Notes under the pieces: generated by a model
Seen by the model: the letters and a program-made list of their open reading frames with translations, nothing else
The model's database searches: none
What the model was told of the DNA's origin: nothing
Assembly: GCA_016931625.1 (NCBI GenBank)
Contig: JAFGEK010000020.1
Coordinates: forward strand, 39,110 to 103,109
Direction of reading: 5' to 3'
DNA from: Deltaproteobacteria bacterium
GTDB taxonomy: Bacteria > Myxococcota > XYA12-FULL-58-9 > JAFGEK01
Length of the DNA stretch: 64,000 nt
Made by a program: the position numbers and the translations under genes
Shown here: piece after piece, positions 39,469 to 54,187 of the stretch
Numbering within the stretch: the first letter of the stretch is position 1
Layout of the letters: each line of letters starts with the position of its first letter

Positions 39469-41399
39469 AAGATGATAAGGCTAAAATATCAGAAATGTTT
39501 ACCCAGACTGCGTTGGCTTGTCTGCGACAAATATTTTTTGGTACTAATTTTGCATACAGTGAAAGCACAGGTTTCTATAAGCTGCTTGATGAAATTAAAG
39601 ACATCGTTACCATCTCGTCTCAAAATGCCGTTAGCTCTTATTATAATACAATTATGTCTGATTTGAGTTATGGGATTGAACAGATAAAAAGACAAATGTT
39701 TGATGAGCTAACAGAACAACAAACCTTTGCGACGGTTAAAGGTATAGACTGTATCAGTGATAAATATGATGCATTTCGTGATCATGGTGGTTTAGTTGTT
39801 GGTACTATTTTTGGGCGTATCAATAGAGGAATATCGCAAGATAAAAATCAACAAAAACTGTCTGATGAAATCAGTGCGCTAACAAATATTGCAAAACAAG
39901 ATTTACAAATGGCTATAGATATCTATTGTCGACTTACAAAAGAAGAGGAGCGCTTAGCTTATATAACTGCATTACGCAGCAATAACGCTGAAATGTTGTC
40001 TCAATTTTGTAATAACAATTTTTTACAAGCCCAAGCCATAATAAACGCATGGAATACTACTAATACCGGTCAATTGTTTGTTGGTACGAATGAAACTGAG
40101 GGCATATTTTTAAATGAAGCAATTACTCAAAGCCTGGATCTTACTCAAGTAGTATTTGCGCCAAATCTACCTGATGTAAATTCTCGCCTTGAAAATTTAC
40201 AGATTAGTACGGAGAAAACAACTAAAAACCTACAAGATAATTGGGTTGCTCTCCAAGTACTCGATGTTGCAACCTTGATGCTACTAGGTGGAGCCGTAGA
40301 AGCAGCTGGTGTGGCTACTCTTGCTCAAGCCAGCAATCTAGTTAAAATATCTACTACCGCCAACAACTTAAGTAAAGGGACACAAGTACTTATATTCGCT
40401 AGTCGTGGTGTTTTGGCGGTTAAAAAAGGATTCCAAACCTTTCAAAAAGCAAAAACCATACTAATTAGCCCAATACGTAACCAAGTAATTAATCTACCAG
40501 GTGTAGTAGGTACTTCTGGGCGCTTTCTTTATGATCTCGCTTATTACCGCACCATTGGGATGACACTCGATGTTATTAATACCAGTGCTCATAAAGCTTT
40601 TGGTAATGACAGTAATAGAGCCGCTTTTGTACAACTATTAGTAATGATGACCAAGCTTGGTCCCAGTTTTAATCCATATCGAATTGGCATTTCTGCAGGT
40701 TTTGAAGTTGGGATTGAAAAACTTTATCAAGAAATCGAGAAAATGCCAGAGCAGGCATTAAATCAGGCGGTCAACGGACATTTAACTCCTGCACAAGAAA
40801 AGGCACTAAAACAAAAAATGATTATGTGGCATTACATAGGTCGCGCTACAGTTGATGTTACTAAAATTTTAGTAAGACGCTGGCAACGTTATAATTCTGG
40901 TACAGAGGCAACGACCCAACAACAAGTTACTGAACTTTCAAAAGTTTTACGTAATAATGGGGCAGTTATAACCTCTGGTACGACATTAGCTCTTACCAGT
41001 TTATTGCGTGGCTATTCATTATCTCTCTGTGAAGTCGGCCATTTTCGTCAGCCACCATCAGTTTTTGAAAATTATCGTAGCTCAATAATTAAAGCATTAG
41101 GAAGTAATGCTTGCCCACGCGCACAAGTAGCATTGCGCGAGTATCTTGATGATCAATTACTGGTCCTTGCAGCAGAACGCTCAGGATTAGATAAACTTCA
41201 ACCAAATAACGATGTTGTTAACACAGAGGTACTAAATAAAAGTATTGAAAGCGTCAAAAATGATTTAATGGCGTTTGGTGTAGCGAAAACAGACGAAGAA
41301 GCCGAAAAATTAGCGCGTGAGCATATTACTAACTGTGTTTTACTTAGTGCTTTGTGTGATACTTCCAACGAAAGAACTAGTAATAAAGTCATAAAATAG
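39462..41399 (+). CDS. Large hypothetical protein (about 645 aa) with a central Gly/Ala-rich hydrophobic segment, translationally coupled to 37192..39468
   Basis: A 7-nt overlap with the upstream gene. TTG at 39462 or ATG at 39495. Central segment VLDVATLMLLGGAVEAAGVATLAQA. No recognisable domain. Confidence 0.55.
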   Translation: MVKDDKAKISEMFTQTALACLRQIFFGTNFAYSESTGFYKLLDEIKDIVTISSQNAVSSYYNTIMSDLSYGIEQIKRQMFDELTEQQTFATVKGIDCISDKYDAFRDHGGLVVGTIFGRINRGISQDKNQQKLSDEISALTNIAKQDLQMAIDIYCRLTKEEERLAYITALRSNNAEMLSQFCNNNFLQAQAIINAWNTTNTGQLFVGTNETEGIFLNEAITQSLDLTQVVFAPNLPDVNSRLENLQISTEKTTKNLQDNWVALQVLDVATLMLLGGAVEAAGVATLAQASNLVKISTTANNLSKGTQVLIFASRGVLAVKKGFQTFQKAKTILISPIRNQVINLPGVVGTSGRFLYDLAYYRTIGMTLDVINTSAHKAFGNDSNRAAFVQLLVMMTKLGPSFNPYRIGISAGFEVGIEKLYQEIEKMPEQALNQAVNGHLTPAQEKALKQKMIMWHYIGRATVDVTKILVRRWQRYNSGTEATTQQQVTELSKVLRNNGAVITSGTTLALTSLLRGYSLSLCEVGHFRQPPSVFENYRSSIIKALGSNACPRAQVALREYLDDQLLVLAAERSGLDKLQPNNDVVNTEVLNKSIESVKNDLMAFGVAKTDEEAEKLAREHITNCVLLSALCDTSNERTSNKVIK

Positions 41400-41552
41400 T
41401 ATAAGCTATGTAGCACTTATTGTTTATATGGGGATTGCTAAAAAATTAACAATACCTAATTTTATAAGTAGAAGGATTTTTTCTGTAATGGGAGCATAAT
41501 GCGTTCAGCTATTTAAAATGATATCTTTATTTATGTGTGAGTGAGGTATTAT

Positions 41553-44234
41553 ATGACGAATAGCACTTACACTGCGCAACTTCCAGAGTTCGATGTTAAA
41601 GAAACCGATGAATGGGTTGAAGCCCTAGATGATGTTGTTGAATATCAAGGTGCTTTACGCGCACGTTTTTTACTTGAGAAAATTTTGGCACGTGCTCGTG
41701 AATTAAAAATTGGTTTGCCCAATTTAACTCAAACTCCTTATATTAATAGTATCCCTCCACATGAAGAGCCACCTTACCCGGGTGACGAAGCACTTGAAAA
41801 AAGAATTCGTCGCATAATTCGTTGGAATGCTATGGCTATGGTCTATCGAGCCAATAAACATTTCCCGGGTATCGGCGGACATGTTGCAACATATGCGAGC
41901 TCTGCAAGTTTATATGAGATTGGTTTTAATCATTTTTTTAAAGGTAAACAACATCCTGATGGTGGTGACCAAGTATATTTTCAGGGTCATGCAGCCCCTG
42001 GTATTTATTCGCGTGCATATTTGTATGGTAGTTTAAATGAAAATCAGCTTGAACACTTTCGCCGTGAAACACTCGGAGAGGGTTTGTCTTCTTATCCACA
42101 TCCTTGGCTAATGCCACAATTTTGGGAATTTCCCACAGTCTCAATGGGCTTAGGACCGATTGCCGCGATTTATCAGGCCCGTTTTAATCGTTATCTTCAT
42201 GCTCGAGGTTTAAAAGACACAAGTAAACAACGAGTTTGGGCTTTTATCGGCGACGGGGAGTGTGATGAACCTGAAGCGCTGGGAGCAATAGATCTAGCGG
42301 CCCGTGAAAGACTTGAGAATTTAACCTTTGTGATTAATGCCAATCTACAACGATTAGATGGGCCGGTACGCGGCAATAGTAAAATTATTCAAGAGTTAGA
42401 AGGCACATTTCGTGGTGCAGGCTGGGAAGTAATTAAAGTTATTTGGGGAACACAATGGGATGAGTTAATTAAGCGTGATTATGACGGAGTGCTAATAAAG
42501 CGACTTAATGAAGTAGTAGATGGGCAATTTCAAAAATATATTACTGAATCTGGTGATTATATTCGTAAAGATTTTTTTGGCGTTGACCCCAGATTGCTTG
42601 AGTTAGTTAAAGACTTTGATGATAACTACCTGCAAAAAATGCGAAGAGGTGGTCATTCGTTAACTAAAGTTTATGCTGCCTATAACAAAGCTATCGACCA
42701 TCAACGTCGACCAACGGTGATTATCGCGCAAACAGTAAAAGGTTGGACGTTGGGCTATGGTTTTGCTGCAGCAAATGTTGCACATCAATTAAAGAAGCTT
42801 GATCTCGATCAATTAAAACGTTTTCGTGATACGCTGCAATTACCGATACCTGACAGTAAAATCGAAGAAGCACCATATTATCATCCAGGTGCTGACAGCC
42901 CAGAAGTTAAATATATGCATGAACGTCGTCAAAATTTAGGTGGCTTTTCGCCATCACGAATTTCACACAAAGTTTCTATACCCAAACCAGCTACTGATAT
43001 TTATCAAGAATTTTATCATGGTTCTAAAGATGAAATGGAAGTATCTACCACAATGGCGTTTGTACGACTATTACGTCAACTCATGCGTGATAAAAATTTT
43101 GGCAAATTAATAGTTCCAATCATACCTGATGAAGCACGTACTTTTGGTATGGATGCATTCTTTCGAGAGTTCGGTATTTATTCCGCAAATGGGCAAAAAT
43201 ACGAGCCTGTTGATGCTCACATGTTGCTTAATTATCATGAAGCTAAAGATGGGCAATTAATTGAAGAGGGCATTACTGAAGCTGGTAGTATGGCCACTTT
43301 TACCGCTGCTGGTACTGCATATGCTACCCATAATGTGCCCATAATACCGTTTTATATGTTCTATTCAATGTTTGGTTTGCAGCGTATTGGTGATCAAGCT
43401 TGGGCTTTTGGTGATAGTCGTGGTCGTGGATTCTTGATGGGAGGTACTGCTGGTCGAACTACTATGCTTGGTGAAGGCTTACAGCATCAAGATGGTAATA
43501 GCCATATTTACGCTTTAGCTTATCCAACGATGCAAGCATATGACCCTGCCTATGCTTACGAAGTCGCAGTAATAATCAAAGATGGCTTACGCCGTATGTT
43601 TAGTGATAATGAAGATATATTTTATTATATCACTTTATATAACGAAAATTACAAAATGCCGCCTAAACCTGAAGGTGTTGATGAAGGTATCGTAAAAGGT
43701 ATGTATCTTGATCGAGCCGCCCTCAGTGATATCAAGGGTCCGAGAGTGCAATTGTTTGGTAGTGGGGCTCTGCTGCGAAGTGCAATAGCGGCACAAGAAA
43801 TATTGGCTACTAAATATAATGTCGCCGCAGATGTATGGTCGGTTACAAGTTATCAGCAATTATATCGTGAGGCACGTAGTTGTGAGCGTCATAATCGCTT
43901 ACATCCTAGCAATACACCTAAACTCCCATATGTTACGCAATTGCTTGAAGGCCATCAAGGCCCAATAATTGCCACTAGTGATTATGTTAGTGAGTTACCC
44001 AGCATTGTCTCACGATATTTGTCACGACGTTTTACCGCACTTGGTACTAACGGATTTGGTAGATCTGACACGCGTGAGGCTTTGCGCTACTTTTTTGAAG
44101 TTGATGCAGCCTACATTGCACAAGCCGCACTTGCTTCGTTGGCGCAAGATGGTACGATTGAAACAAAAGTTGTTGAGCAGGCGATTAAAGACCTTGATAT
44201 TGACCCTGAAAAACTAGATGCTGCCATCGCGTGA
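41553..44234 (+). CDS. aceE: Pyruvate dehydrogenase E1 component (homodimeric type)
   Basis: 893 aa. The N-terminus ...ETDEWVEALDDVVEYQGALRARFLLEKILARAREL and the TPP motif GDGECDEPEALGAI...NLQRLDGPVRGN are AceE hallmarks. ATG at 41553 with GAGG upstream (the ORF-track GTG at 41541 is less likely). Confidence 0.9.
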   Translation: MTNSTYTAQLPEFDVKETDEWVEALDDVVEYQGALRARFLLEKILARARELKIGLPNLTQTPYINSIPPHEEPPYPGDEALEKRIRRIIRWNAMAMVYRANKHFPGIGGHVATYASSASLYEIGFNHFFKGKQHPDGGDQVYFQGHAAPGIYSRAYLYGSLNENQLEHFRRETLGEGLSSYPHPWLMPQFWEFPTVSMGLGPIAAIYQARFNRYLHARGLKDTSKQRVWAFIGDGECDEPEALGAIDLAARERLENLTFVINANLQRLDGPVRGNSKIIQELEGTFRGAGWEVIKVIWGTQWDELIKRDYDGVLIKRLNEVVDGQFQKYITESGDYIRKDFFGVDPRLLELVKDFDDNYLQKMRRGGHSLTKVYAAYNKAIDHQRRPTVIIAQTVKGWTLGYGFAAANVAHQLKKLDLDQLKRFRDTLQLPIPDSKIEEAPYYHPGADSPEVKYMHERRQNLGGFSPSRISHKVSIPKPATDIYQEFYHGSKDEMEVSTTMAFVRLLRQLMRDKNFGKLIVPIIPDEARTFGMDAFFREFGIYSANGQKYEPVDAHMLLNYHEAKDGQLIEEGITEAGSMATFTAAGTAYATHNVPIIPFYMFYSMFGLQRIGDQAWAFGDSRGRGFLMGGTAGRTTMLGEGLQHQDGNSHIYALAYPTMQAYDPAYAYEVAVIIKDGLRRMFSDNEDIFYYITLYNENYKMPPKPEGVDEGIVKGMYLDRAALSDIKGPRVQLFGSGALLRSAIAAQEILATKYNVAADVWSVTSYQQLYREARSCERHNRLHPSNTPKLPYVTQLLEGHQGPIIATSDYVSELPSIVSRYLSRRFTALGTNGFGRSDTREALRYFFEVDAAYIAQAALASLAQDGTIETKVVEQAIKDLDIDPEKLDAAIA

Positions 44235-44240
44235 ATATAT

Positions 44241-45254
44241 TTATATGATTTTAATGTTTTTAAAAATACGCATGAGTAAATAAATTGAAGGGACTAGAAT
44301 AATTGAGCCTAGTCCGAGCGCCCATAACACCATTGTTTGAGTTACCGTTGTGTAACTAGCTGCAGTTAAAGTGATATCTGGCATAATCAGGTAAGGGGCC
44401 TGTGCCGCACCCCAACTAATGACTAGTAATGCTATTTGCAGTACTGCAGCTAATCGGGCCAAATAAAATTTGTTTCGCAACAGTGCACTAAACGCAAATA
44501 TGGCTGCAGCTAATATTCCAAGTAGCAAAGGTATTGACCATGCTTGTGTCACTAGTTGGATGAAAAAAATAGGGGCTTCGGCCCATGCCAAAATAATTGC
44601 AAAAAGTGCGAGTACAAAAACCGCAATGCTGCACAACAAGGCTACGCGACGAAAAACAACGATTAAATGTTTTTGTTCATCAAGTGATTGTGCTTCAATA
44701 ATAAGATATACAGCGGCGATATATGCAAATAAAGCAACTGTATGCAACCCAGTTATAATTGGAAAAAGACCCAGCCAAGGTTGCCAATAACTACCCGTGA
44801 ACGTTCCATTAACAAAACGCAAACGACCGGAACTAACTGTACCAATAATTATGCCAAGCATTAGTGGGGCGATAATACTGGCTAGCGCAAAAACCAATTG
44901 CCAATATTTTTGTATAGTCGGTGAAGCATAATCAGAGGTGTAAAACGCAAATGCAGCACCACGTAACACTACACTAACTAAAAATATAAGTATGGGTATA
45001 AAAAGACTTATTGATAAGGCAGCAAACGCCGGCGGAAAACAAGTAAACAAGAGCACTACTATTAATATAAGCCAAACATGATTAGCTTCCCAAACCGGAC
45101 CGATCGCTTGTCTAATTAGCAAACGTTGCTCATTTTTATTTTGCCCAAAAGCTAGGGCACTAAGTACTCCACCACCAAAATCAGCACCGCCAAGTAAACT
45201 GTAAATTAATATGGCTGCTAATAATACCCAACCTAAAACATCAGCAGTGGACAT
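44241..45254 (-). CDS. cydB: Cytochrome bd ubiquinol oxidase subunit II
   Basis: 337 aa polytopic membrane protein starting MSTADVLGWVLLAAILIYSLLGGADFGGG (CydB N-terminus). Overlaps the cydA stop. Confidence 0.85.
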   Translation of the reverse strand: MSTADVLGWVLLAAILIYSLLGGADFGGGVLSALAFGQNKNEQRLLIRQAIGPVWEANHVWLILIVVLLFTCFPPAFAALSISLFIPILIFLVSVVLRGAAFAFYTSDYASPTIQKYWQLVFALASIIAPLMLGIIIGTVSSGRLRFVNGTFTGSYWQPWLGLFPIITGLHTVALFAYIAAVYLIIEAQSLDEQKHLIVVFRRVALLCSIAVFVLALFAIILAWAEAPIFFIQLVTQAWSIPLLLGILAAAIFAFSALLRNKFYLARLAAVLQIALLVISWGAAQAPYLIMPDITLTAASYTTVTQTMVLWALGLGSIILVPSIYLLMRIFKNIKII

Positions 45255-46608
45255 TGGATTGCTCCGAAGTTATTGCTGATGATGTCATTGTTGCCATGGT
45301 TGGTTGTGAACCCTTATGAATCATACGGCTAAGTAAAATAGTAACTGACACCCCAAGCAAAGCAAACAAACTAATTATAACCCAAAATGGCGTGGCTAAG
45401 TTTGGCATAGGGGTTACGGCAGCACTAGTTAGCATCGTATTCATAATCGTATAAGGTTGACGTCCCCACTCAGTTACTAACCAACCGGTTTCAAGAGCTA
45501 TATAACCTATTGGGGTGCACAGCATGATGATAGCTAACAAGGTGTGATTAAAAACAAATTCTTGTTTGCGCCAGCGTGTGCGTAACATGGCTGCGTATAT
45601 TAAAAGCACGACAAATGCCATTAAAAATCCCAAGCCCACCATAATTTGAAAAGCTAAATGTACGAGTAAAGTATTTGGCCAGGTGTGGCGGGGAAACTCT
45701 TCAAGACCAAGCACTTTTGCATGAGGGTCATGAAAAGCTAAAAGTGACAAGCCATAAGGTATTTTAAGTGCATACGGTGTTGTCATAGTGTCATCGTCGG
45801 GTATGCCACCAATATGCAAGGGGGCAGCGTTGGTAGTAAGATAGTGACCTTCGATAGCTGCAAGCTTGCGTGGTTGGTTAGTTGCAACATGCCGTGCAGA
45901 AAAATCTCCAGAAATTGGTTGCAACAGTGCAGCAATACCACCAACGCCAATTGCAATTAAAAGTGCGGTTCGATGAAAAGTACTGCTAGGCTGTCGCCAT
46001 AAATAAAAGGCGTGAATGCCAGCCACGGCAAAACCAACAGCGGCATAACATGAAAGCAGTACATGTATTACTTCTTCAGCAAAACCAGGTGGAAACATGG
46101 CAACGATAGGGGAGATATTATGCGGCTTACCGTCAATCAGTGCAAAACCAACCGGGTTGTTCATCCAGGCGTTAGTAAGGGTTACCAAAAATCCAGATAA
46201 GGCGCTGCTTAAAGCAATGATGATTCCAGAGAAAAAATGTAACTGGCGGCTGACACGCTCCCAACCGTAAAGATAGATGCCTAAAAATATAGCTTCGATA
46301 AAAAATGCAAAACCTTCAAGAGAAAAAGGAAAGCCAATTAATGGTCCGGCAAAATCCATAAAGCGCGGCCAAAGCAAGCCAAGCTCAAATGAAATGACCG
46401 TGCCGGTAACTGCGCCGACGGCAAATAGTATCGCAACACCCTTAGACCATTTTTGCGCCAACTCGCGATACACCGCTTTGCCGCTACGCAACCAACGCCA
46501 TTCGGCGATAGTCATCATTAAGGGTAGGGCGACACCAATAGCCGCAAAAGTAATATGAAAGGCTAAAGTTAAGCCCATTAGCCAGCGGGCATACATGAGA
46601 TCAGTCAC
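45241..46608 (-). CDS. cydA: Cytochrome bd ubiquinol oxidase subunit I
   Basis: 455 aa. ...MGLTLAFHITFAAIGVALPL...EWRWLRSG... and the Q-loop region ...GWLVTEWGRQPY... are CydA signatures. Confidence 0.9.
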   Translation of the reverse strand: MTDLMYARWLMGLTLAFHITFAAIGVALPLMMTIAEWRWLRSGKAVYRELAQKWSKGVAILFAVGAVTGTVISFELGLLWPRFMDFAGPLIGFPFSLEGFAFFIEAIFLGIYLYGWERVSRQLHFFSGIIIALSSALSGFLVTLTNAWMNNPVGFALIDGKPHNISPIVAMFPPGFAEEVIHVLLSCYAAVGFAVAGIHAFYLWRQPSSTFHRTALLIAIGVGGIAALLQPISGDFSARHVATNQPRKLAAIEGHYLTTNAAPLHIGGIPDDDTMTTPYALKIPYGLSLLAFHDPHAKVLGLEEFPRHTWPNTLLVHLAFQIMVGLGFLMAFVVLLIYAAMLRTRWRKQEFVFNHTLLAIIMLCTPIGYIALETGWLVTEWGRQPYTIMNTMLTSAAVTPMPNLATPFWVIISLFALLGVSVTILLSRMIHKGSQPTMATMTSSAITSEQSNVHC

Positions 46609-46702
46609 GCCTTATGTCTATCGTTGCTTGCAGATGATGACAAGTTTAGTTTTCTGACTCCGAAAAATAATTAGTCTGGCCATTGTTTTTTTACCATATT
46701 CA

Positions 46703-49700
46703 TTAATTAACTTCATCCGGTCCAATATCAAAAATACCATCACTTGACGGCCGAGTCTGCTGTTCAATATCTTGGCTAATATTAGAGGTACTATTATCTA
46801 ATGACGCACCATTATTTCGTGCTGGCGACACTGCCGATAAACGCGTTTGAGAATAATCCCAATTTGCACTAGGCTCGACTAAAAATGGGTCTACAATAAG
46901 ATTGCTTGTGATATTTGGTGTGCCAGCAATTTGATTAATAGTTGCGGCAGAGTAGGTGACCATACTCGTCTCTGGGCCAATAGCCACATAGACGGGTACA
47001 TCACTAGTCGCTAAGTCGTCTTTAGCAATGTACATCAAGTTATGACTAAATCTCGCCATATTGCTCTCTTGTGTGCTAGTTATTTCAAGCACCGCTAATC
47101 GCCGCGACTCATCGATGCTATTGCCTATATTAAATATATTATTAACCAAGCTTATGCCGTCATTGTTGATTTGGTTGAGGTAAATCGCAGTCTGGAGTTG
47201 CCCTGGCGCTGCTAATGCAGTTTCTGGGCTAACCGCAAATAGATTATGATAGGCAGCAACACCAGTTCCGCCATTTTGCCACAAAGCTATCAAATGCTGC
47301 CCCCGATTTGATAAGAATACATTATTAGTAAGTAGTGGGGCGCTGATAGTAGTTGGCGTATCAATCATCGCTGCAGCGCAATTAGTTTGTATTTTGGTTG
47401 TTGAAGCTGTCAGTGTAGGCAAAACACACGAAACTCCGTTAGCATCAAAAAGAGTGCCGACTTGATTGCCAGAGCTAGTACTTAACTCAGTGGTATCGCG
47501 AAAAGCAATAGCGACAATATCGGCGCTAGTATCACTGCCTGAGGTTATGTAGTACCCAGCTCGTATTTCGTTATTGTTAACCACTGCACCGCTGTTGTTT
47601 ATTAACCATAAGCCGGTGGCATGAAGTGGATCAGAAGTAATGTTAGAATTTAATGCGGTTGTTGGTCCACCAGTAATAGCTCCAAAGCCGTAACTGCTGG
47701 CGGATTTACCATTATTTACAATAGAAGCTGTGTTTGTGCCATATAGCAGTAATCCAACAGCGACTAACGGTCCGCCACTGCTTGGCATGTTAAACGCCAT
47801 GTCGGCAATTAAATGATTATTGATAATTTGCAAGTTATAGGAGTTGCCAGCAGTAACAGCTAGACGACTAACATTATCATAACTTGCGTCAATGATGCCG
47901 GCACATAAAAGCCGGCCGGCTTCTTGGTTGGTGATAATAGCATCATTGTCTGCAATTATAGTATTGTCTGAGTGGTCAATACGAATAGCTGCCGAGACGT
48001 CTGCACTCCCGCTAGCGGATATTTCATCATTAGCAAGTATGCTGGCGCTAGGTCTCCCGCCATTAACGGTAGTCATATTAATACCAATTGCTTGAGTAGT
48101 AGTATTACTTGTGCTGCTACCTGAGGCCGAAATCTTTTTAATATGTTGAATGGTAGCACTTGCATTATCTACAATTGCTACCGCTAAACATTCATTAGTA
48201 CAATTTTGTGCTGAAATTGATTCAAGACCATCTAAAACTAAATTCGCTCCATTAGTCTCAGTCGCCTCTACGCGAGCAGCGTTTAATAATGCTCCACCGG
48301 TGACAGTAATTGTGCCGCCGCGCATTTGCAGTTGTGCGGGGATGGCCGTAGTACCGGTCACATAAAGGCCACGGACTGTTGCTGCGTCTGCTGCTATGCT
48401 TTGCAAAGTACAATTAGACAGTAAAACAGTGCTGCCGCTATTATATACTGCTCCTGCAGAGGCATTTTGCGATACTATATTAAGACCAGAAATAGTGCCA
48501 TTATACCCAGAAGAAAAAGTCAATGTCGGTTCAGTATTTGTTACTATGTTGCTACTTTGTAATGTTGCCAAAGGTGTAGTAGCCGGTGTGGTGGCATTAA
48601 CGAAACCAAAAATGCTCGGATGATGGGGTGGGTTAGAATGTTGCTGTGGATTTAATACAAACGGCCCGCGAAAATCATCGCTACCTAATATGCAGATATT
48701 CGTGCCATCATTCCAGGCTTTATTTAAAGCGTTAATAAGTGGCCCCATAGTATTGGAAGCATCGCTACCACTACCATTACCACTGCCGCCATTAGTAGCC
48801 CAAACGCAATTTTCACTGATGATATAAATATTAGCAGTGTCAATTTTTGCACCGTCACTAACGCTAACCGTAATGAGATGAGGAGTAGGGTTTGCCGCTG
48901 GTATAACTGCAGTTACACTGCGCTCCAAGGTAGTGTCAGTGGTATTGCAGGTTCCACTACCAGTGCAAATTAATAAGTTATCGTTATCGGTCCAGCTAAA
49001 ATCCCAACTATTGCCATCTATATCAGCCGCAGTGACAGCGAGTGTAATTTGGCTATCAGCTATTGCCAGCACATACCAATCTTGACCAACAAGACGAGCA
49101 TTGCTGACCTGAATTATTTCTGGGGCATCGTTATTGATAATCAATGACAAACTAGCATCAACGCCATTGCCATCAGCGCCGAGTGTAACGCTATATGTAC
49201 AACTATCGACCGTATCATTAGCAACGATAATAGTAATGTCATAATTATCACCGTTGTTACTAAGAGCCGTATTAATGTCGCTACTATTACATCCACTGGT
49301 TGCTGCAACACTAAGAGCAGCATTAGTTACCGGAACACTATGTTGAATAAGCGCACTAAAGTGGCGCGTTTCATTTGGATGCAAGCTAATCGTTGATCCC
49401 GAAGTAGTTAAACTTACAGTATAAGGAGGGCATAACTCGTCAATCGTTTCATCACAATTATTATCGATACTATCATAGCAAATCTCAGTATTTAACGGTG
49501 AACGGCGATAATCAGTATCGTCACAGTCTTGAGTATGTAATATATATTGGTCGCAATTAGCGAAAGCACCATCAGCGTCAAGATCACGGCAGATAGCACA
49601 GCGCCCCCAAACGTCAGGATCATTATCATTGCAATCATCGCCTAGACCGGCTGGGCTCTGTGGACAAATATTCGGACTGCCAATAATTATTTTTTGGGCA

Positions 49701-50074
49701 TCGCAATGCTCATCCAAATCACTGTCGCAACCGTTATCTATAACTCCATCGCAATCGTTATCTAAATTATCGCAAAGTTCATTTGTGGGTAAATAATTGT
49801 CATAAGCCTCAATGCATTGATTGTCTTGGTTACATAACAATTGATTATTACTGCATAAACCGTTCAAATTAGTAGCTGGTTGGCTGGTACAACCTTCATC
49901 AATGACTCCATCACAATTATTATCGATACCATCGCAAATTTCATTTGTGGGTATACAAGTGTTTTGCTCTGTCTCGATTGGGATGTTAATGATTTCAGTT
50001 TTAGGAGTACGGCTCGTACAATTTGCTAATAAAATCGTTAAAATTGTAAAACTCAACAACCAATTGCACTGCAT
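46703..50074 (-). CDS. Giant surface lipoprotein (about 1123 aa). It has N-terminal MopE-type Cys/Asp repeats (CDGxDNxCDGxIDxGC) and a Thr/Ser/Asn/Gly-rich right-handed beta-helix-like body.
   Basis: ATG at 50072-50074 with AAGGAGG 5 nt upstream. Lipobox LLANC. Three or more copies of E[IL]CDx[IL]DN[ND]CDG[VT]IDxGC plus CNDNDPDVWGRCAICRDLDADG. The remainder is low complexity with ...NxxxN.../beta-helix periodicity. The ORF-track start at 50218 has no signal peptide. Confidence 0.7.
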   Translation of the reverse strand: MQCNWLLSFTILTILLANCTSRTPKTEIINIPIETEQNTCIPTNEICDGIDNNCDGVIDEGCTSQPATNLNGLCSNNQLLCNQDNQCIEAYDNYLPTNELCDNLDNDCDGVIDNGCDSDLDEHCDAQKIIIGSPNICPQSPAGLGDDCNDNDPDVWGRCAICRDLDADGAFANCDQYILHTQDCDDTDYRRSPLNTEICYDSIDNNCDETIDELCPPYTVSLTTSGSTISLHPNETRHFSALIQHSVPVTNAALSVAATSGCNSSDINTALSNNGDNYDITIIVANDTVDSCTYSVTLGADGNGVDASLSLIINNDAPEIIQVSNARLVGQDWYVLAIADSQITLAVTAADIDGNSWDFSWTDNDNLLICTGSGTCNTTDTTLERSVTAVIPAANPTPHLITVSVSDGAKIDTANIYIISENCVWATNGGSGNGSGSDASNTMGPLINALNKAWNDGTNICILGSDDFRGPFVLNPQQHSNPPHHPSIFGFVNATTPATTPLATLQSSNIVTNTEPTLTFSSGYNGTISGLNIVSQNASAGAVYNSGSTVLLSNCTLQSIAADAATVRGLYVTGTTAIPAQLQMRGGTITVTGGALLNAARVEATETNGANLVLDGLESISAQNCTNECLAVAIVDNASATIQHIKKISASGSSTSNTTTQAIGINMTTVNGGRPSASILANDEISASGSADVSAAIRIDHSDNTIIADNDAIITNQEAGRLLCAGIIDASYDNVSRLAVTAGNSYNLQIINNHLIADMAFNMPSSGGPLVAVGLLLYGTNTASIVNNGKSASSYGFGAITGGPTTALNSNITSDPLHATGLWLINNSGAVVNNNEIRAGYYITSGSDTSADIVAIAFRDTTELSTSSGNQVGTLFDANGVSCVLPTLTASTTKIQTNCAAAMIDTPTTISAPLLTNNVFLSNRGQHLIALWQNGGTGVAAYHNLFAVSPETALAAPGQLQTAIYLNQINNDGISLVNNIFNIGNSIDESRRLAVLEITSTQESNMARFSHNLMYIAKDDLATSDVPVYVAIGPETSMVTYSAATINQIAGTPNITSNLIVDPFLVEPSANWDYSQTRLSAVSPARNNGASLDNSTSNISQDIEQQTRPSSDGIFDIGPDEVN

Positions 50075-50325
50075 ACCCGCCTCCTTAAGACAGCGGTCGT
50101 GCTTCTTTTTCCTTGCGCGAAGTGTCGCTATACTTATTTTTATGGCAACACTTTGCATATACTTATAGATCGTAGCCGAAATCCGCGCAGATGCAATTAT
50201 CAAAACTATCATGCTCATTTTGAATAATTTCGAATCTATTCAATAGGAAACTGCTCTAAGCGGTTGCGTCGCGGGTCATCGGTGTGGTACAGCGCCCGCT
50301 TTGTTGGTGATGGAGGTTTTTGGTA

Positions 50326-50688
50326 ATGACGCTCGTAAATTTAATAAATTTCGTAACGTTAGCGCAAGCTGCCGGTAATAGTGCTACAAAAGGTGGTCCA
50401 TTTGATGGTCTTGTAACCATTGGTGGCCCCATTTTAATGTTTGTGGTTATTTACCTGCTTTTAATACGTCCTGCTGGCAAACAACGCCGTGAGCATCAAG
50501 CAATGTTAAATAAGCTTGAAGCAGGCATTGAAGTCATTACCACTGGTGGTCTTATTGGCAAAATTGTGCGCATCGAAGATCGTATTGTTACTTTAGAAGT
50601 TGCCGATAAGGTTAAAATTAGGCTGCTAAGAGACCGTATTGCCGGTCGTTTTGCCTCACCAACTGCGGCTGCAGCTCAAAAGAGTTAA
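50326..50688 (+). CDS. yajC: Preprotein translocase subunit YajC
   Basis: A single transmembrane helix then ...LLIRPAGKQRREHQAMLNKLEAGIEVITTGGLIGKIVRI..., the YajC consensus. GGAGG 9 nt upstream of ATG 50326. Confidence 0.85.
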   Translation: MTLVNLINFVTLAQAAGNSATKGGPFDGLVTIGGPILMFVVIYLLLIRPAGKQRREHQAMLNKLEAGIEVITTGGLIGKIVRIEDRIVTLEVADKVKIRLLRDRIAGRFASPTAAAAQKS

Positions 50689-50713
50689 GGATATCAGCGA
50701 GGAACAAAAAAGC

Positions 50714-52525
50714 ATGAATCGCTCATGGTATTTTAAGTTTGTTCTGACGTTAATTTTTTTATTAGGGTCATTATATCTCTTATACCCATCTTACGTTTAC
50801 TACTATAAGGCTTCCGCAGCTGAACGTGAAGACAACGATGCTTTTTGCAAATCAATGCCAAAAGGCATGCATTGTAAAAAGTTCAATCTCGGCCTAGATC
50901 TTTATGGTGGCGTTCATCTGGTCATGGGTGTTGAGGTTGAAAAAGCAGTGCAACAAAGAGCTGATCGTCTCGCAGATGCCCTGCGTCAAGAGTTGAAAGA
51001 GCAAAAAATTAATTTTTCAAATATTATTAGACCAAGAGACAATAGCGATATCATTGTTACTTTAACCGCTAATGATTCTGATGAAAGTTTTAAAAAAATA
51101 ATTCGTAAAGAATTTAAAGTATTACACATAGTTCAACATGAAGATCGTACCTATACCCTTGCGGTAACCGGGGAATATGCAGAGCACATTCGCGAATCTG
51201 CCGTTGAGCAGGCAATTAAGACCATTCGTAACCGTGCTGATAAACTAGGTGTTACCGAACCTACGATTGCAAAGCGCGGTACTGATAACATTTTAATTCA
51301 ATTGCCAGGCGTTCGCGACCCTGACCGAGCTATTGCAGTTATTGGCCGCACGGCACAACTCGAATTTAAAATAGTTGACGCTGAAGCAACTGCGGTTTTT
51401 GACGAAATTACTAATGAGCAATTGCCGCAAGGTGTTACAAAAGAAGAGCACACCTTTACAGGTCATGGTGGTAAATCAACTCGCGAAGTTTATTTTGAAA
51501 CGCCATATGAGCAAAAAGAAGCCTTAGAAAAATTACTTACCGCAAAAATACCTTCTGACCGAGAGATTTTATTTGGTGATATCGATAGAAAAGGCAGTGC
51601 GGCTCAAGCGACACAAGTAAAAACACCACAACGTTTGCGCACCTATTTAGTTACTACCCGTCCTGGGATTACCGGTGATTATTTAACTGACGCTAATGTC
51701 GAGCAAGACCCAAAAATGCCGGGTGACTATTATGTCTCTATGACTTTCGATCAAAAGGGCGCTCAAATTTTTGCAAAGTTAACTGAAGAAAACGAACAGC
51801 GTATGATGGCTATTGTGCTTGACGAAAAAGTTAATAGCGCCCCAGTTATTCAAGAAAAAATTGGTGGAGGCTCAGCCCGTATCACTCTTGGTGGCAATTA
51901 CGGCTCAACAAATTCTCGCTTTGAAGAAGCAAAAGATCTTGCAACCGTGCTAAAAGCTGGTGCTTTACCAGCACCAGTTGATGTTCGTGAAAAACGCCAA
52001 GTTGGCAAAACTATGGGAGAGGATACTGCTCGCAAGGGCCAAATAGCCTTGGTTGTTGGTGTTTTTGCTGTATTAATTTTTATGGTTTTCTATTATCGGG
52101 TAAGTGGTTTAATTGCCAATTTCGGCTTAATTCTCAACTTTGTTTTATTGTTGGCAATTATGGTCGTTTTTGAAGCAACTCTTACCCTACCAGGTATGGC
52201 TGGCATCGCTTTAACTCTAGGTATGGCAGTAGATGCCAACGTACTTATTTGTGAGCGTATTCGTGAAGAACTTCGTTTGGGTAAAACACCGCGAGCTGCC
52301 ATTGATACTGGGTACAGCAAAGCTTTTTCAGCAATTTTTGACTCTAATGTGACAACATTAATTGCTGCAGTAGTGCTTATGCAGTATGGCACGGGGCCGG
52401 TGCGCGGTTTTGCCGTGACGCTTATAATTGGTCTGCTTTGTTCGTTATATACATCAGTAATTGTATCGCGGTTGATATATGACTTTATTACTTCTAGCTG
52501 GCGTATTCAGCGTTTAAGTATTTAA
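50714..52525 (+). CDS. secD: Protein translocase subunit SecD
   Basis: A large periplasmic domain, then the SecD membrane core with GLDLYGGVHLV near the N-terminus and ...MAGIALTLGMAVDANVLICERIREE.... ATG at 50714 after GAGG (the ORF-track start at 50639 overlaps yajC). Confidence 0.9.
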   Translation: MNRSWYFKFVLTLIFLLGSLYLLYPSYVYYYKASAAEREDNDAFCKSMPKGMHCKKFNLGLDLYGGVHLVMGVEVEKAVQQRADRLADALRQELKEQKINFSNIIRPRDNSDIIVTLTANDSDESFKKIIRKEFKVLHIVQHEDRTYTLAVTGEYAEHIRESAVEQAIKTIRNRADKLGVTEPTIAKRGTDNILIQLPGVRDPDRAIAVIGRTAQLEFKIVDAEATAVFDEITNEQLPQGVTKEEHTFTGHGGKSTREVYFETPYEQKEALEKLLTAKIPSDREILFGDIDRKGSAAQATQVKTPQRLRTYLVTTRPGITGDYLTDANVEQDPKMPGDYYVSMTFDQKGAQIFAKLTEENEQRMMAIVLDEKVNSAPVIQEKIGGGSARITLGGNYGSTNSRFEEAKDLATVLKAGALPAPVDVREKRQVGKTMGEDTARKGQIALVVGVFAVLIFMVFYYRVSGLIANFGLILNFVLLLAIMVVFEATLTLPGMAGIALTLGMAVDANVLICERIREELRLGKTPRAAIDTGYSKAFSAIFDSNVTTLIAAVVLMQYGTGPVRGFAVTLIIGLLCSLYTSVIVSRLIYDFITSSWRIQRLSI

Positions 52526-52538
52526 GGAACCAAATATT

Positions 52539-53687
52539 ATGCGAGAGTTCTTCAAACCAGGTTTATATATAAATTTTATGGGTAAGTTCCGAGTTTTCGG
52601 GACATTTTCAGCATTGCTGATTATCGGTAGCATAGTATCGATAGCAGTACGTGGTTTTAATTTTGGTCTCGATTTTGCTGGTGGTTATGAAATTCAGGTT
52701 AAATTGCCAAAAGCTGTCAACGAAGACGAGATTAATTCAGTAATTAGTCCATTAGGTATTACCGATGCTCGAGTGCAACAACTTGGTAATCAAGATGGCC
52801 TTGAATACTTAATTCTCGTTCGCCAACAGGGTACTCTTGGTGAAAAAGAAAAAGACGCACTTAAGAATGAATTTGAAACACTTGCTGGTGGTATTAATAA
52901 AATTGCTAATTGGACAATAGCCGAAAGTGGTGAAGTTATAAGTGTGGGTTTTGATCAACCGATAATCGAAGATCAAGTACAAGCTCTGCTATCTAAGCAT
53001 AATTTAAAAGTGCTCAAGATTACCGCTGGCGAACGTGCAGATAAGTCAGAATATACAATTGAACTTGCATCTATCGGCCAGCAAATAACTGAAGTTTTAA
53101 ATAAAAAAATGAATGTAGATGCAGGCAATGTATCGATAGAATTTGTTGGCCCTCAAGTTGGTGAGCAACTTCGTAATCAGGGGATTATGGCCGTAGCAAT
53201 ATCGCTACTATTTTTGATGTTATATATAGCCATTCGTTTTGATTTTTATTTTTCTCCTGGTGCCATCATCGCTATTCTTCATGATGTTACAATAGTTCTA
53301 GGAGTGTTTTCGTTTTTTCAAATTGATTTCACTTTATCAACGGTTGCCGGTATTCTTACTCTTATTGGTTACTCATTAAACGATACGGTTGTTGTCTATG
53401 ATCGCATTCGAGAAAATATTGCTCGGTTACGTGGTCGTGAGTTGCGTTTTTTAGTTAGTTCTTCGATTAGTGAAACGCTTTCCCGTACTATGCTTACAGG
53501 TCTAACAACAATGTTCGTAGTAATTTCGTTATTTATTTGGGGCGGTCGCGCGTTAATGGATTTTTCCGCGTGTTTATTGGTAGGAATTATCATTGGTACT
53601 TATTCATCAATTGCTATTGCTGCTCCATCTTATGTGTTGTTGCGTGAGCAATACGACCGTCGGGTCAAAACAAAAGCAAGCGCTTAA
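52539..53687 (+). CDS. secF: Protein translocase subunit SecF (with an extended periplasmic insert)
   Basis: ...GLDFAGGYEIQVK... and the C-terminal ...LNDTVVVYDRIRENI...ETLSRTMLTGLTTM... are SecF motifs. 382 aa. Confidence 0.85.
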   Translation: MREFFKPGLYINFMGKFRVFGTFSALLIIGSIVSIAVRGFNFGLDFAGGYEIQVKLPKAVNEDEINSVISPLGITDARVQQLGNQDGLEYLILVRQQGTLGEKEKDALKNEFETLAGGINKIANWTIAESGEVISVGFDQPIIEDQVQALLSKHNLKVLKITAGERADKSEYTIELASIGQQITEVLNKKMNVDAGNVSIEFVGPQVGEQLRNQGIMAVAISLLFLMLYIAIRFDFYFSPGAIIAILHDVTIVLGVFSFFQIDFTLSTVAGILTLIGYSLNDTVVVYDRIRENIARLRGRELRFLVSSSISETLSRTMLTGLTTMFVVISLFIWGGRALMDFSACLLVGIIIGTYSSIAIAAPSYVLLREQYDRRVKTKASA

Positions 53688-54187
53688 ATTTCTTTAGACG
53701 ATACACCGCACTTACTAGTAAACTAAAATATAACAAGACGATTTTATGTCTTGAACGTTAATTAAATACAGTTAGTTCTGTTAAAAGTTTTGGTGGAGTG
53801 ATGGTGCGATGATCGGGCCCCCTTTGGCGGTTGGCAATTTCGCGAAAAAAGAATAACCCAATCATCACACCACCGCTCAACCAAAATATAAGATAGAGCA
53901 AGGTAGAAAAGTCTTATACTCGATTTGATCAGTGGCTGAAAAGTACACAAAAGGTTTTTTAAGAGCAGCAGAATTGTAAATTTATTGTTAAAATTATAAA
54001 AAACCAATAAAATCAACGAATAAGCTAGGCGATCAAGGACTTAAAACGTACAAAAACCTGTATAAAAACTTAAATCGCGATTTGATGCGTAAATGGTAGG
54101 TTTTTTCGTAAAAATGCCATGTTGTAAGCAAAAAAGCGGACTATACCTAATAACAATGGTAGGGTGTTTGAATAATAAGGAGTCTCT

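Follow-up and report, generated by a model that had tools for sequence, protein, structure and literature searches.

A gene for a large protein with Cys/Asp repeats, of the kind that Pfam names after the copper protein MopE, is located immediately upstream of cydAB in the 64-kb stretch of DNA analyzed in this study (hereafter the window). The locus raises the question of whether a copper-binding surface protein is connected with a terminal oxidase and, if not, what the gene product may do. The features on which the answer is based are listed in Table 1.

Table 1. Positions of the putative lipoprotein gene, the modules of its product, and the neighboring elements in the window
Feature	Residues	Position	Strand	Basis or remark
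Weak sigma-70-like promoter candidate, TTCAAA-17-GATAAT		50196..50224	-	Consensus match only (9/12)
Shine-Dalgarno sequence, AAGGAGG		50080..50086	-	5-nt spacer to ATG; same start in the NCBI annotation
Signal peptide with lipobox-like L-A-N-C, Cys19	1-19	50018..50074	-	Sequence read
Cys/Asp/Asn-rich region, 20 Cys	40-215	49430..49957	-	PF11617 match, regular expression, Cys positions
PF11617 copy 1	45-62	49889-49942	-	
PF11617 copy 2	99-116	49727-49780	-	
Degenerate PF11617 copy	148-169	49568-49633	-	
PF11617 copy 3	197-215	49430-49486	-	
Two tandem Ig-like beta-sandwich domains (predicted)	217-421	48812..49426	-	Structure prediction
Right-handed parallel beta-helix body (predicted)	~422-1050	46925..48811	-	
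C-terminal cap motif, RL..S.A...G....DI..Q.RP....DIGPDE	1078-1123	46706..46843	-	Family conservation
Stop codon of the putative lipoprotein gene		46703-46705	-	
Intergenic gap, stop codon to cydA		46609..46702	-	No terminator-like hairpin, no sigma-70-like promoter
cydA, cytochrome bd subunit I		45241-46608	-	PF01654, E 1.1e-133
cydB, cytochrome bd subunit II		44241-45254	-	PF02322, E 7.5e-58

The gene product and its export signal

The protein comprises 1123 aa translated from the ATG at 50074-50072 on the reverse strand and is identical to NCBI MBN1959608.1. The initial annotation had placed the start at this ATG, behind AAGGAGG, and regarded the open reading frame (46703..50218, reverse strand; 1171 aa) as 48 codons too long; both points agree with the NCBI entry. 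The 1171-aa start and an internal ATG at around 50158 were rejected, as neither is accompanied by a Shine-Dalgarno sequence and the signals of the homologues are 17-20 residues in length. The promoter candidate sits in the divergent intergenic region common to this gene and yajC-secDF, in a region where sigma-70-like sites were no more frequent than expected by chance (22, against 18.3 +/- 4.6 in shuffled sequences).

The hydrophobic signal ends in L-L-A-N-C (residues 15-19), and Cys19 aligns with the Cys of canonical lipoboxes in the homologues, which had Gly or Ala at position -1 in every homologue read (LLAGC, NGC, SGC, VGC, and others). The window protein has Asn at this position, outside the consensus [LVI][ASTVI][GAS]C, a deviation that had gone unremarked in the initial annotation, and its n-region, MQCNW, contains neither Lys nor Arg. 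As the Asn is combined with an n-region lacking basic residues, signal peptidase I may cleave after LLA, in which case the protein would be soluble and either periplasmic or secreted. The mature protein carries 32 Cys beyond Cys19, and the number is even in each module (20, then 4, then 8), which fits an oxidizing extracytoplasmic location. Altogether, the protein is exported and most likely lipid-anchored, as the first reading of the gene as one for a lipoprotein had it, and it is presumably exposed on the cell surface.

The Cys/Asp repeats and the name MopE

The N-terminal 215 residues are rich in Asp (15%) and Asn (12%). A search with a regular expression recovered three canonical repeats, namely CDGIDNNCDGVID (residues 47-59), CDNLDNDCDGVID (101-113), and CYDSIDNNCDETID (199-212), as well as a variant, CNDNDPD...CRDLDAD, at residues 148-168. 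At least three canonical repeats plus this variant had been recognized by the initial annotation, and the Pfam scan that it called for agrees: PF11617 matched the whole protein in three stretches with 46.4 bits (E 4.7e-12) and residues 20-215 alone with 54.7 bits, both above the gathering cutoff of 27 bits. No PF11617-type repeat was found elsewhere in the 64-kb window. The pLDDT of the AlphaFold model was below 50 for residues 1-216, and thus the model provides no structural information on this part; the family name of PF11617 itself calls the metal binding putative.

We found 402 proteins matching the window protein at E <= 0.001, and PF11617 was present in all of the 120 matches listed, many of which were named as MopE-related or MYXO-CTERM proteins. 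These PF11617-bearing multidomain surface proteins of Myxococcota and their relatives resemble the window protein in the 30-residue Cys/Asp repeat, the N-terminal signal/lipobox, and the large size. On the other hand, most of the matches listed have only the repeat in common with it (5-19% query coverage), while the body made of Ig-like domains, beta-helix, and cap is limited to about 33 cluster representatives. Furthermore, the window protein ends at the cap motif and thus lacks C-terminal sorting signals such as MYXO-CTERM.

The repeats had been labeled as MopE-type, and a rival explanation would be that the protein acquires copper at the cell surface as a genuine relative of MopE/CorA. The PF11617 model, however, takes in only a minor portion of MopE/CorA and is not specific (PMC6189053). 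In MopE, Cu(I) is bound with high affinity by His132, His203, and kynurenine-130, and the EPR data give no support for coordination by Cys (PMC3423442). In the window protein, there are only about two His (0.9%) in the N-terminal region, the Cys are probably all engaged in disulfides, and the nosFY, nosZ, and cop genes are not adjacent. No homology to the Cu(I)-site domain of MopE* was detected, and a sequence search of the PDB found nothing at E <= 1. A 24-residue peptide from the Asp-rich N-terminus of MopE* (PMC3423442) in turn gave no match against Pfam, probably because it is too short. The likeness to the methanotroph MopE/CorA is confined to the short Asp-rich, Cys-containing motif behind the Pfam name, and the architecture, size, and genomic context are all different. 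We therefore abandon the MopE-type label; judging from the sequences, the PF11617 motif does not make the window protein a homologue of MopE, and its participation in copper acquisition is highly improbable.

From the Ig-like pair to the C-terminal cap

The initial annotation had assigned the remaining 850 residues to a beta-helix. The AlphaFold model agrees for residues ~422-1050, but residues 217-421 were predicted as two Ig-like domains, a pair between the repeats and the helix that had been overlooked. The body begins with an N-terminal cap (CVWA, a helix at residues 444-456, and ICILG) containing Cys423 and Cys461, both invariant in the family. The body was rightly described as rich in Thr, Ser, Asn, and Gly (residues 422-1123: A 11.4, S 10.8, N 10.4, T 10.1, and G 8.4%).

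In the model (pTM 0.81), the body takes on a three-stranded right-handed parallel beta-helix fold; the underlying alignment comprised 7 sequences, and confidence was low for the first 216 and the last ~70 residues. Of the checks proposed earlier, the structure prediction returned the expected fold, but the Pfam beta-helix models gave no match to the window protein beyond PF18889 at E 0.99. Among 12 homologues, PF13229 was detected in two (E 2.5e-7), and NosD and TIGR03804 in one each. Foldseek gave weak matches for the body (best E 1.9e-4; TM 0.2-0.3), and sequence and profile searches against the PDB yielded no informative match. The periodicity that had been read in the sequence was not recovered, as the autocorrelation of hydrophobicity at lags 2-44 remained at z <= 2.4 at every lag with no detectable period. 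Nevertheless, the coil lengths vary in a beta-helix, and the missing period is no argument against the fold. Altogether, the structure prediction and the homologues, not periodicity, support the body being a right-handed parallel beta-helix as predicted.

In the cap, R1078, L1079, A1085, D1102, R1108, D1116, G1118, and E1121 were the same in all 19 family members, and the pLDDT was below 50. The NCBIfam model NF041518 (choice-of-anchor Q; 58 positions) matched the last ~40 residues of 8 of the 12 homologues (best E 1.4e-9), one of which (P0006) scored 26.3 bits against the cutoff of 25, albeit no match to the window protein itself was detected at E <= 1. The residues of that segment that do not vary (R, D, R, D, G, and E) are retained in the window protein, and its cap appears to correspond to the motif in the homologues. 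It differs from the choice-of-anchor Q proteins in bearing no C-terminal anchor after the motif.

We compared the window protein with known right-handed parallel beta-helix (pectin-lyase-like) proteins, namely the autotransporter passengers Vag8, pertactin, and UpaB, the adhesin PfbA, phage tailspikes/depolymerases, AlgE/AlgG epimerases, and NosD, and the sequence identity was 15% or lower in all cases. Unlike the autotransporter passengers and PfbA, it has neither a beta-barrel translocator nor LPXTG, and it differs from the phage tailspikes and NosD in lacking a phage context and a nosFY partner, respectively; the combination of adjacent nosF/nosY and nosZ, by which NosD is recognized, is absent from the locus. 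The proposed anchoring through an N-terminal lipid and a stalk sets it apart from all the proteins compared, and it contains no recognized catalytic motif.

Across the 19 family members, near-invariant polar residues of the helix that could take part in catalysis are limited to D729 and D860. W823 is the sole other notable conserved residue, and the other conserved positions are scaffold Asn, Gly, Ile, and Leu. As the remaining conservation is that of a scaffold, we favor a binding or adhesive role over a catalytic one, and the adhesin- or fiber-like role suggested in the initial annotation is plausible for a body predicted as a beta-helix. What counts against a non-catalytic helix is that D729 and D860, together with an NE[IL]R motif often conserved in the family, could make up a site for catalysis or for Ca2+. 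The helix might be an enzyme anchored at the surface (a polysaccharide lyase, a glycoside hydrolase, or a C5-epimerase) and act in the remodeling or breakdown of exopolysaccharide, capsule, or the prey cell wall, with the stalk and the Ig-like domains as a tether; we regard such an enzyme as a possible but rather unlikely candidate.

The family, the cydAB neighborhood, and the proposed role

An exhaustive phmmer search of 1.84 billion proteins recovered 33 representatives of the body family. Word-indexed searches with the body alone or with a 12-sequence body profile returned almost nothing, as low-complexity words swamp the candidates, and thus the exhaustive search was needed. The same architecture was found in all of the members whose sequences were read. 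The closest orthologue showed 41-44% identity, and a tRNA-like sequence comes next after its gene. Metagenome contigs yielded no relative when scanned with the window protein and six loci when scanned with a subclade alignment. No conserved neighbor gene was found across the family loci; the one recurring neighbor, a trypsin-like protease present in two loci, was rejected as a partner. A literature search on MopE, beta-helix, and lipoprotein found nothing relevant.

The cydA and cydB genes, which we judged to be neighbors outside the feature, lie downstream and in the same direction, as had been described. The gap is 94 nt with GTG at 46608 as the cydA start, or 106 nt with ATG at 46596, the start given by another gene caller. 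The initial annotation saw no obvious terminator in the gap, and both a scan for terminator-like hairpins, which found none, and the RNA fold (z = +0.96 versus shuffles) agree. No sigma-70-like promoter was found in the gap even in a relaxed scan, and Rfam searched over 44000-51000 gave only a chance-level sRNA match (E 0.4) and no family in the gap. With neither terminator nor promoter detectable, read-through into cydAB is possible, but the absence of a terminator says little, since terminator-like sites occur in the region at the chance level (10 versus 6.7 +/- 2.9).

The short distance on one strand and the gap without terminator and promoter, as co-transcription predicts, would suit a functional partner of cytochrome bd, i.e., a co-transcribed surface accessory related to metal or oxygen, with expression coupled to that of the oxidase. 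The same gene order was found in a second public assembly as well, but its DNA is 100% identical and the assembly is not independent. Against such a partner, neither cydA nor cydB was found near the homologue genes in five homologue contexts and six metagenome loci (about 10 distinct), and no homologue of the window protein was found at 37 cydA loci. These comparisons tested synteny only at a long evolutionary distance, because the species-representative collection contained no close relative of the source genome (best CydA identity, 59%). Cytochrome bd contains three haems and no copper, which counts against both the partnership and a copper link, and no known Cyd accessory, CydX and CydDC included, resembles the window protein. 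The significance that the initial annotation had attached to the adjacency was thus not upheld: a functional partnership with the oxidase is very unlikely, and the adjacency, as far as gene order in the sequences compared can tell, looks like a local accident.

Our preferred reading, which we hold to be probable but by no means secure, is that of an exported four-module protein encoded by a stand-alone gene unit, in which a beta-helix mainly serves binding or adhesion. The start codon, the motifs, the order of the domains, the predicted fold, the rarity of the family, and the lack of conserved synteny are established here, while lipidation, surface exposure, metal binding, the class of ligand, and the non-catalytic role are the conjectural parts. 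A signal peptide ending in the lipobox-like LLAN-C would be followed by an acidic, disulfide-rich stalk of ~175 residues with three PF11617 'CxDxxDNDCDGxxDE' repeats and degenerate copies, which would be locked by 10 disulfides and most probably bind Ca2+ or a different divalent cation. Two Ig-like spacer domains would come next, and then a right-handed parallel beta-helix of ~630 residues closed by the conserved C-terminal cap. The stalk and the Ig-like domains would keep the helix away from the membrane, and its long flat faces may serve to bind a polymer, most probably a polysaccharide, which could belong to the cell's own surface, to prey or other cells, or to the matrix. Transcription of the gene may read through into cydAB.

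Altogether, we regard the window protein as a rare but otherwise unremarkable beta-helix protein of the cell surface, and the tempting idea that connects a 'copper-binding' surface protein with a terminal oxidase is dropped as unsupported. It is very unlikely that the family of ~33 clusters represents a hitherto unrecognized class of outer-membrane-tethered enzymes acting on polysaccharides, in effect a new lyase or hydrolase family, possibly captured into the cydAB unit in this low-GC lineage; if captured, remodeling of surface glycans would be induced under micro-oxia along with the high-affinity oxidase. The finding matters little beyond annotation, where the vague 'putative metal-binding motif-containing protein' gives way to a four-module architecture and a small family is defined for which neither Pfam nor NCBIfam has a dedicated model. 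If the family is enzymatic, a new carbohydrate-active family is possible. Binding of Ca2+ by the stalk, if it occurs, would contribute to correcting the misleading name 'Cu-binding_MopE' on many surface proteins of the Myxococcota type.

Gene start and Cys/Asp repeats

The ORF listed on the minus strand immediately upstream of cydAB (46703..50218) encodes 1171 aa, which the initial annotation considered 48 codons too long, placing the start at ATG 50074. The start codon, the remark on the length and the coordinates all proved right, as AAGGAGG lies five bases ahead of this ATG, no comparable ribosome-binding site was read at the 5' end upstream of the ATG at 50218, and the 1123 residues translated from 50074 match exactly MBN1959608.1 of NCBI ('MAG: putative metal-binding motif-containing protein [Deltaproteobacteria bacterium]'). 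The 1171-aa call was found in a Logan assembly, in which contig SRR13394437_315911 is 100% identical to window positions 40703-53956 (13,254 nt) and bears, by its gene caller, the long 1171-aa ORF and a 451-aa cydA from ATG 46596.

The three MopE-type repeats and one variant anticipated from the sequence were recovered as three canonical copies and a degenerate one, and no Cys/Asp repeat was found elsewhere in the window. The expected Pfam match to PF11617 was obtained with 46.4 bits for the whole protein and 54.7 bits for the N-terminal region alone (cutoff, 27 bits). The model name 'Cu-binding_MopE' should not be over-read, since MopE* binds Cu(I) with high affinity through His132, His203 and kynurenine-130, Cys ligation being unsupported by EPR (PMC3423442), and no solved structure has detectable sequence similarity to this protein. 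The Cys/Asp repeats of two homologues, P0003 (residues 360-376) and P0006 (residues 123-144), gave sub-threshold matches to NF033662 of NCBIfam, 'acidic double-disulfide repeat' (15-18 bits, where the cutoff is 41), a hint that the PF11617 motif is one of a larger set of acidic repeats locked by disulfides. The D-x-D-N-D-C-D-G-x-x-D-E pattern resembles DxDxDG-type Ca2+ loops, which we take as a lead.

Features located in the gene, its flank and its product
Feature	Position	Strand	Remark
Shine-Dalgarno AAGGAGG	50086-50080	minus	ahead of ATG 50074-50072
Terminator-like hairpin	50281-50296	+	inside the 245-nt divergent region
Canonical Cys/Asp repeat	residues 47-59		CDGIDNNCDGVID
Canonical Cys/Asp repeat	residues 101-113		CDNLDNDCDGVID
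Canonical Cys/Asp repeat	residues 199-212		CYDSIDNNCDETID
Degenerate repeat	residues 148-168		CNDNDPD...CRDLDAD

Export and the beta-helix body

The protein begins with MQCNWLLSFTILTILLAN-C (residues 1-19), and Cys19 aligned with the lipobox Cys of the homologues (LLAGC, NGC, SGC, VGC, AGC and others). In the proposed lipobox, LLANC, position -1 is Asn, against Gly or Ala in all homologues aligned, and the n-region has no basic residue; lipidation is thus probable from the family context rather than established. Export is well supported, because 32 more cysteines lie beyond Cys19 (20 in residues 40-215, four in 216-421 and eight in 422-1123), an even number in every module of the mature protein.

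A body of 850 residues with pectate-lyase-like periodicity had been proposed. Although a crude periodicity test on the protein was negative, the beta-helix fold is supported by structure modeling and homologue matches, its extent being ~630 residues. AlphaFold, with an input of seven sequences, gave a pLDDT of 62.9 for the full-length protein and of 73.6 (pTM 0.81) for the body alone, with which every Foldseek match was a beta-helix protein at a weak score. Among 12 homologues, PF13229 matched two (E 2.5e-7), NosD one and NF041518 'choice-of-anchor Q' eight, the last at the final ~40 residues. Residues 216-1123 of the protein itself matched no Pfam or NCBIfam model.

Exhaustive phmmer with residues 215-1123 against 1.84 billion proteins yielded a family of 33 cluster representatives, 26 of them below 1e-10. 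In the full-length members inspected, the modules follow one order: signal or lipobox, Cys/Asp repeats in varying number, a ~200-residue region, the motif 'CVWA', an extended body rich in Asn/Gly/Ser/Thr/Ala and, at the terminus, the motif '...DIDGxxRPxxxxVDIGHDE'. The homologue P0133 (3646 aa) carries the Ig, beta-helix and cap module in its N-terminal third (residues ~437-1312), followed by long repetitive Ig-like and Ala-rich regions.

In the 19-member family alignment, most near-invariant helix positions belong to the Asn, Gly, Ile and Leu scaffold of the helix; the remainder comprise W823, D729, D860 and, in the N-terminal cap, the Cys423/Cys461 pair. Conservation is strongest in the C-terminal cap (R1078, L1079, A1085, D1102, R1108, D1116, G1118 and E1121, each 19/19). 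The alignment contains no conserved Lys/His/Glu constellation typical of lyases or hydrolases, and on this ground we favour binding or adhesion as the role of the protein. The two Asp residues and the NE[IL]R/RDG motifs, one coil apart, speak for an enzyme as the less likely reading.

Relationship to cydAB

The adjoining cydA and cydB are genuine. The gap to cydA is 94 nt, as initially annotated, if cydA starts at GTG 46608, and 106 nt from ATG 46596. No terminator had been obvious by eye, and the gap indeed contains no terminator-like hairpin and no excess of RNA folding (z +0.96), nor any sigma-70-like promoter, even at 8/12 matches, or Rfam family, so that transcription may read through from the gene into cydA. 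The absence of a terminator is weak evidence, as terminator-like sites occur at chance frequency in this region. The ends of cydB and the convergent aceE (pyruvate dehydrogenase E1, 41541-44234) are only 6 nt apart (window 44234-44241), with no detectable terminator between them. On the other side, 245 nt (window 50075-50319) separate the gene from the divergent yajC-secD-secF (50320-53687), presumably containing the promoters for both; only weak promoter consensus matches were found there.

The suggested coupling of the surface protein to the terminal oxidase is unsupported by conservation over the long evolutionary distances compared. Both cydA and cydB were absent from the contexts of the homologues P0003, P0006, P0013 and P0004, from the locus of the closest orthologue (P0002+P0121, split by a frameshift and with 41-44% identity) and from six more metagenome loci of the family. 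Reciprocally, no homologue was found at 37 cydA loci from species-representative genomes of Gemmatimonadota, Nitrospirota, Acidobacteriota, Anaeromyxobacter and others, which are distant relatives of the window genome (~40% GC), with CydA identity of <=59%. The only other assembly with the same gene order is of the same organism, as its DNA is 100% identical over 13.3 kb. Copper is absent from cytochrome bd, which has haems b558, b595 and d, so a 'Cu-binding' neighbor of cydAB has no obvious role.

No recurring gene adjoined the members across the family loci compared. The closest orthologue (L007:2608-5936) comprises ORFs of 672 aa and 428 aa divided by a frameshift near L007:4479-4494, so that it is a pseudogene unless the assembly is in error here, and the tRNA-like sequence downstream of it lies at the end of the contig. 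Two unrelated loci have a trypsin-like protease directly upstream of the family gene (the protease with 44% identity between the loci), and on one metagenome contig the family gene is accompanied, ~8 kb away, by a second gene with MopE + Beta_helix (L004:19892-20083, L004:6874-7632 and L049:1278-2642 for these observations).

The feature as a whole is real and was well described initially. Its possible coupling to the terminal oxidase, the sole element that made the protein look unusual, would be only a local possibility. The protein is an ordinary member of the bacterial surface beta-helix proteins with Myxococcota-style Cys/Asp repeats, in a rare sub-family without a dedicated model.
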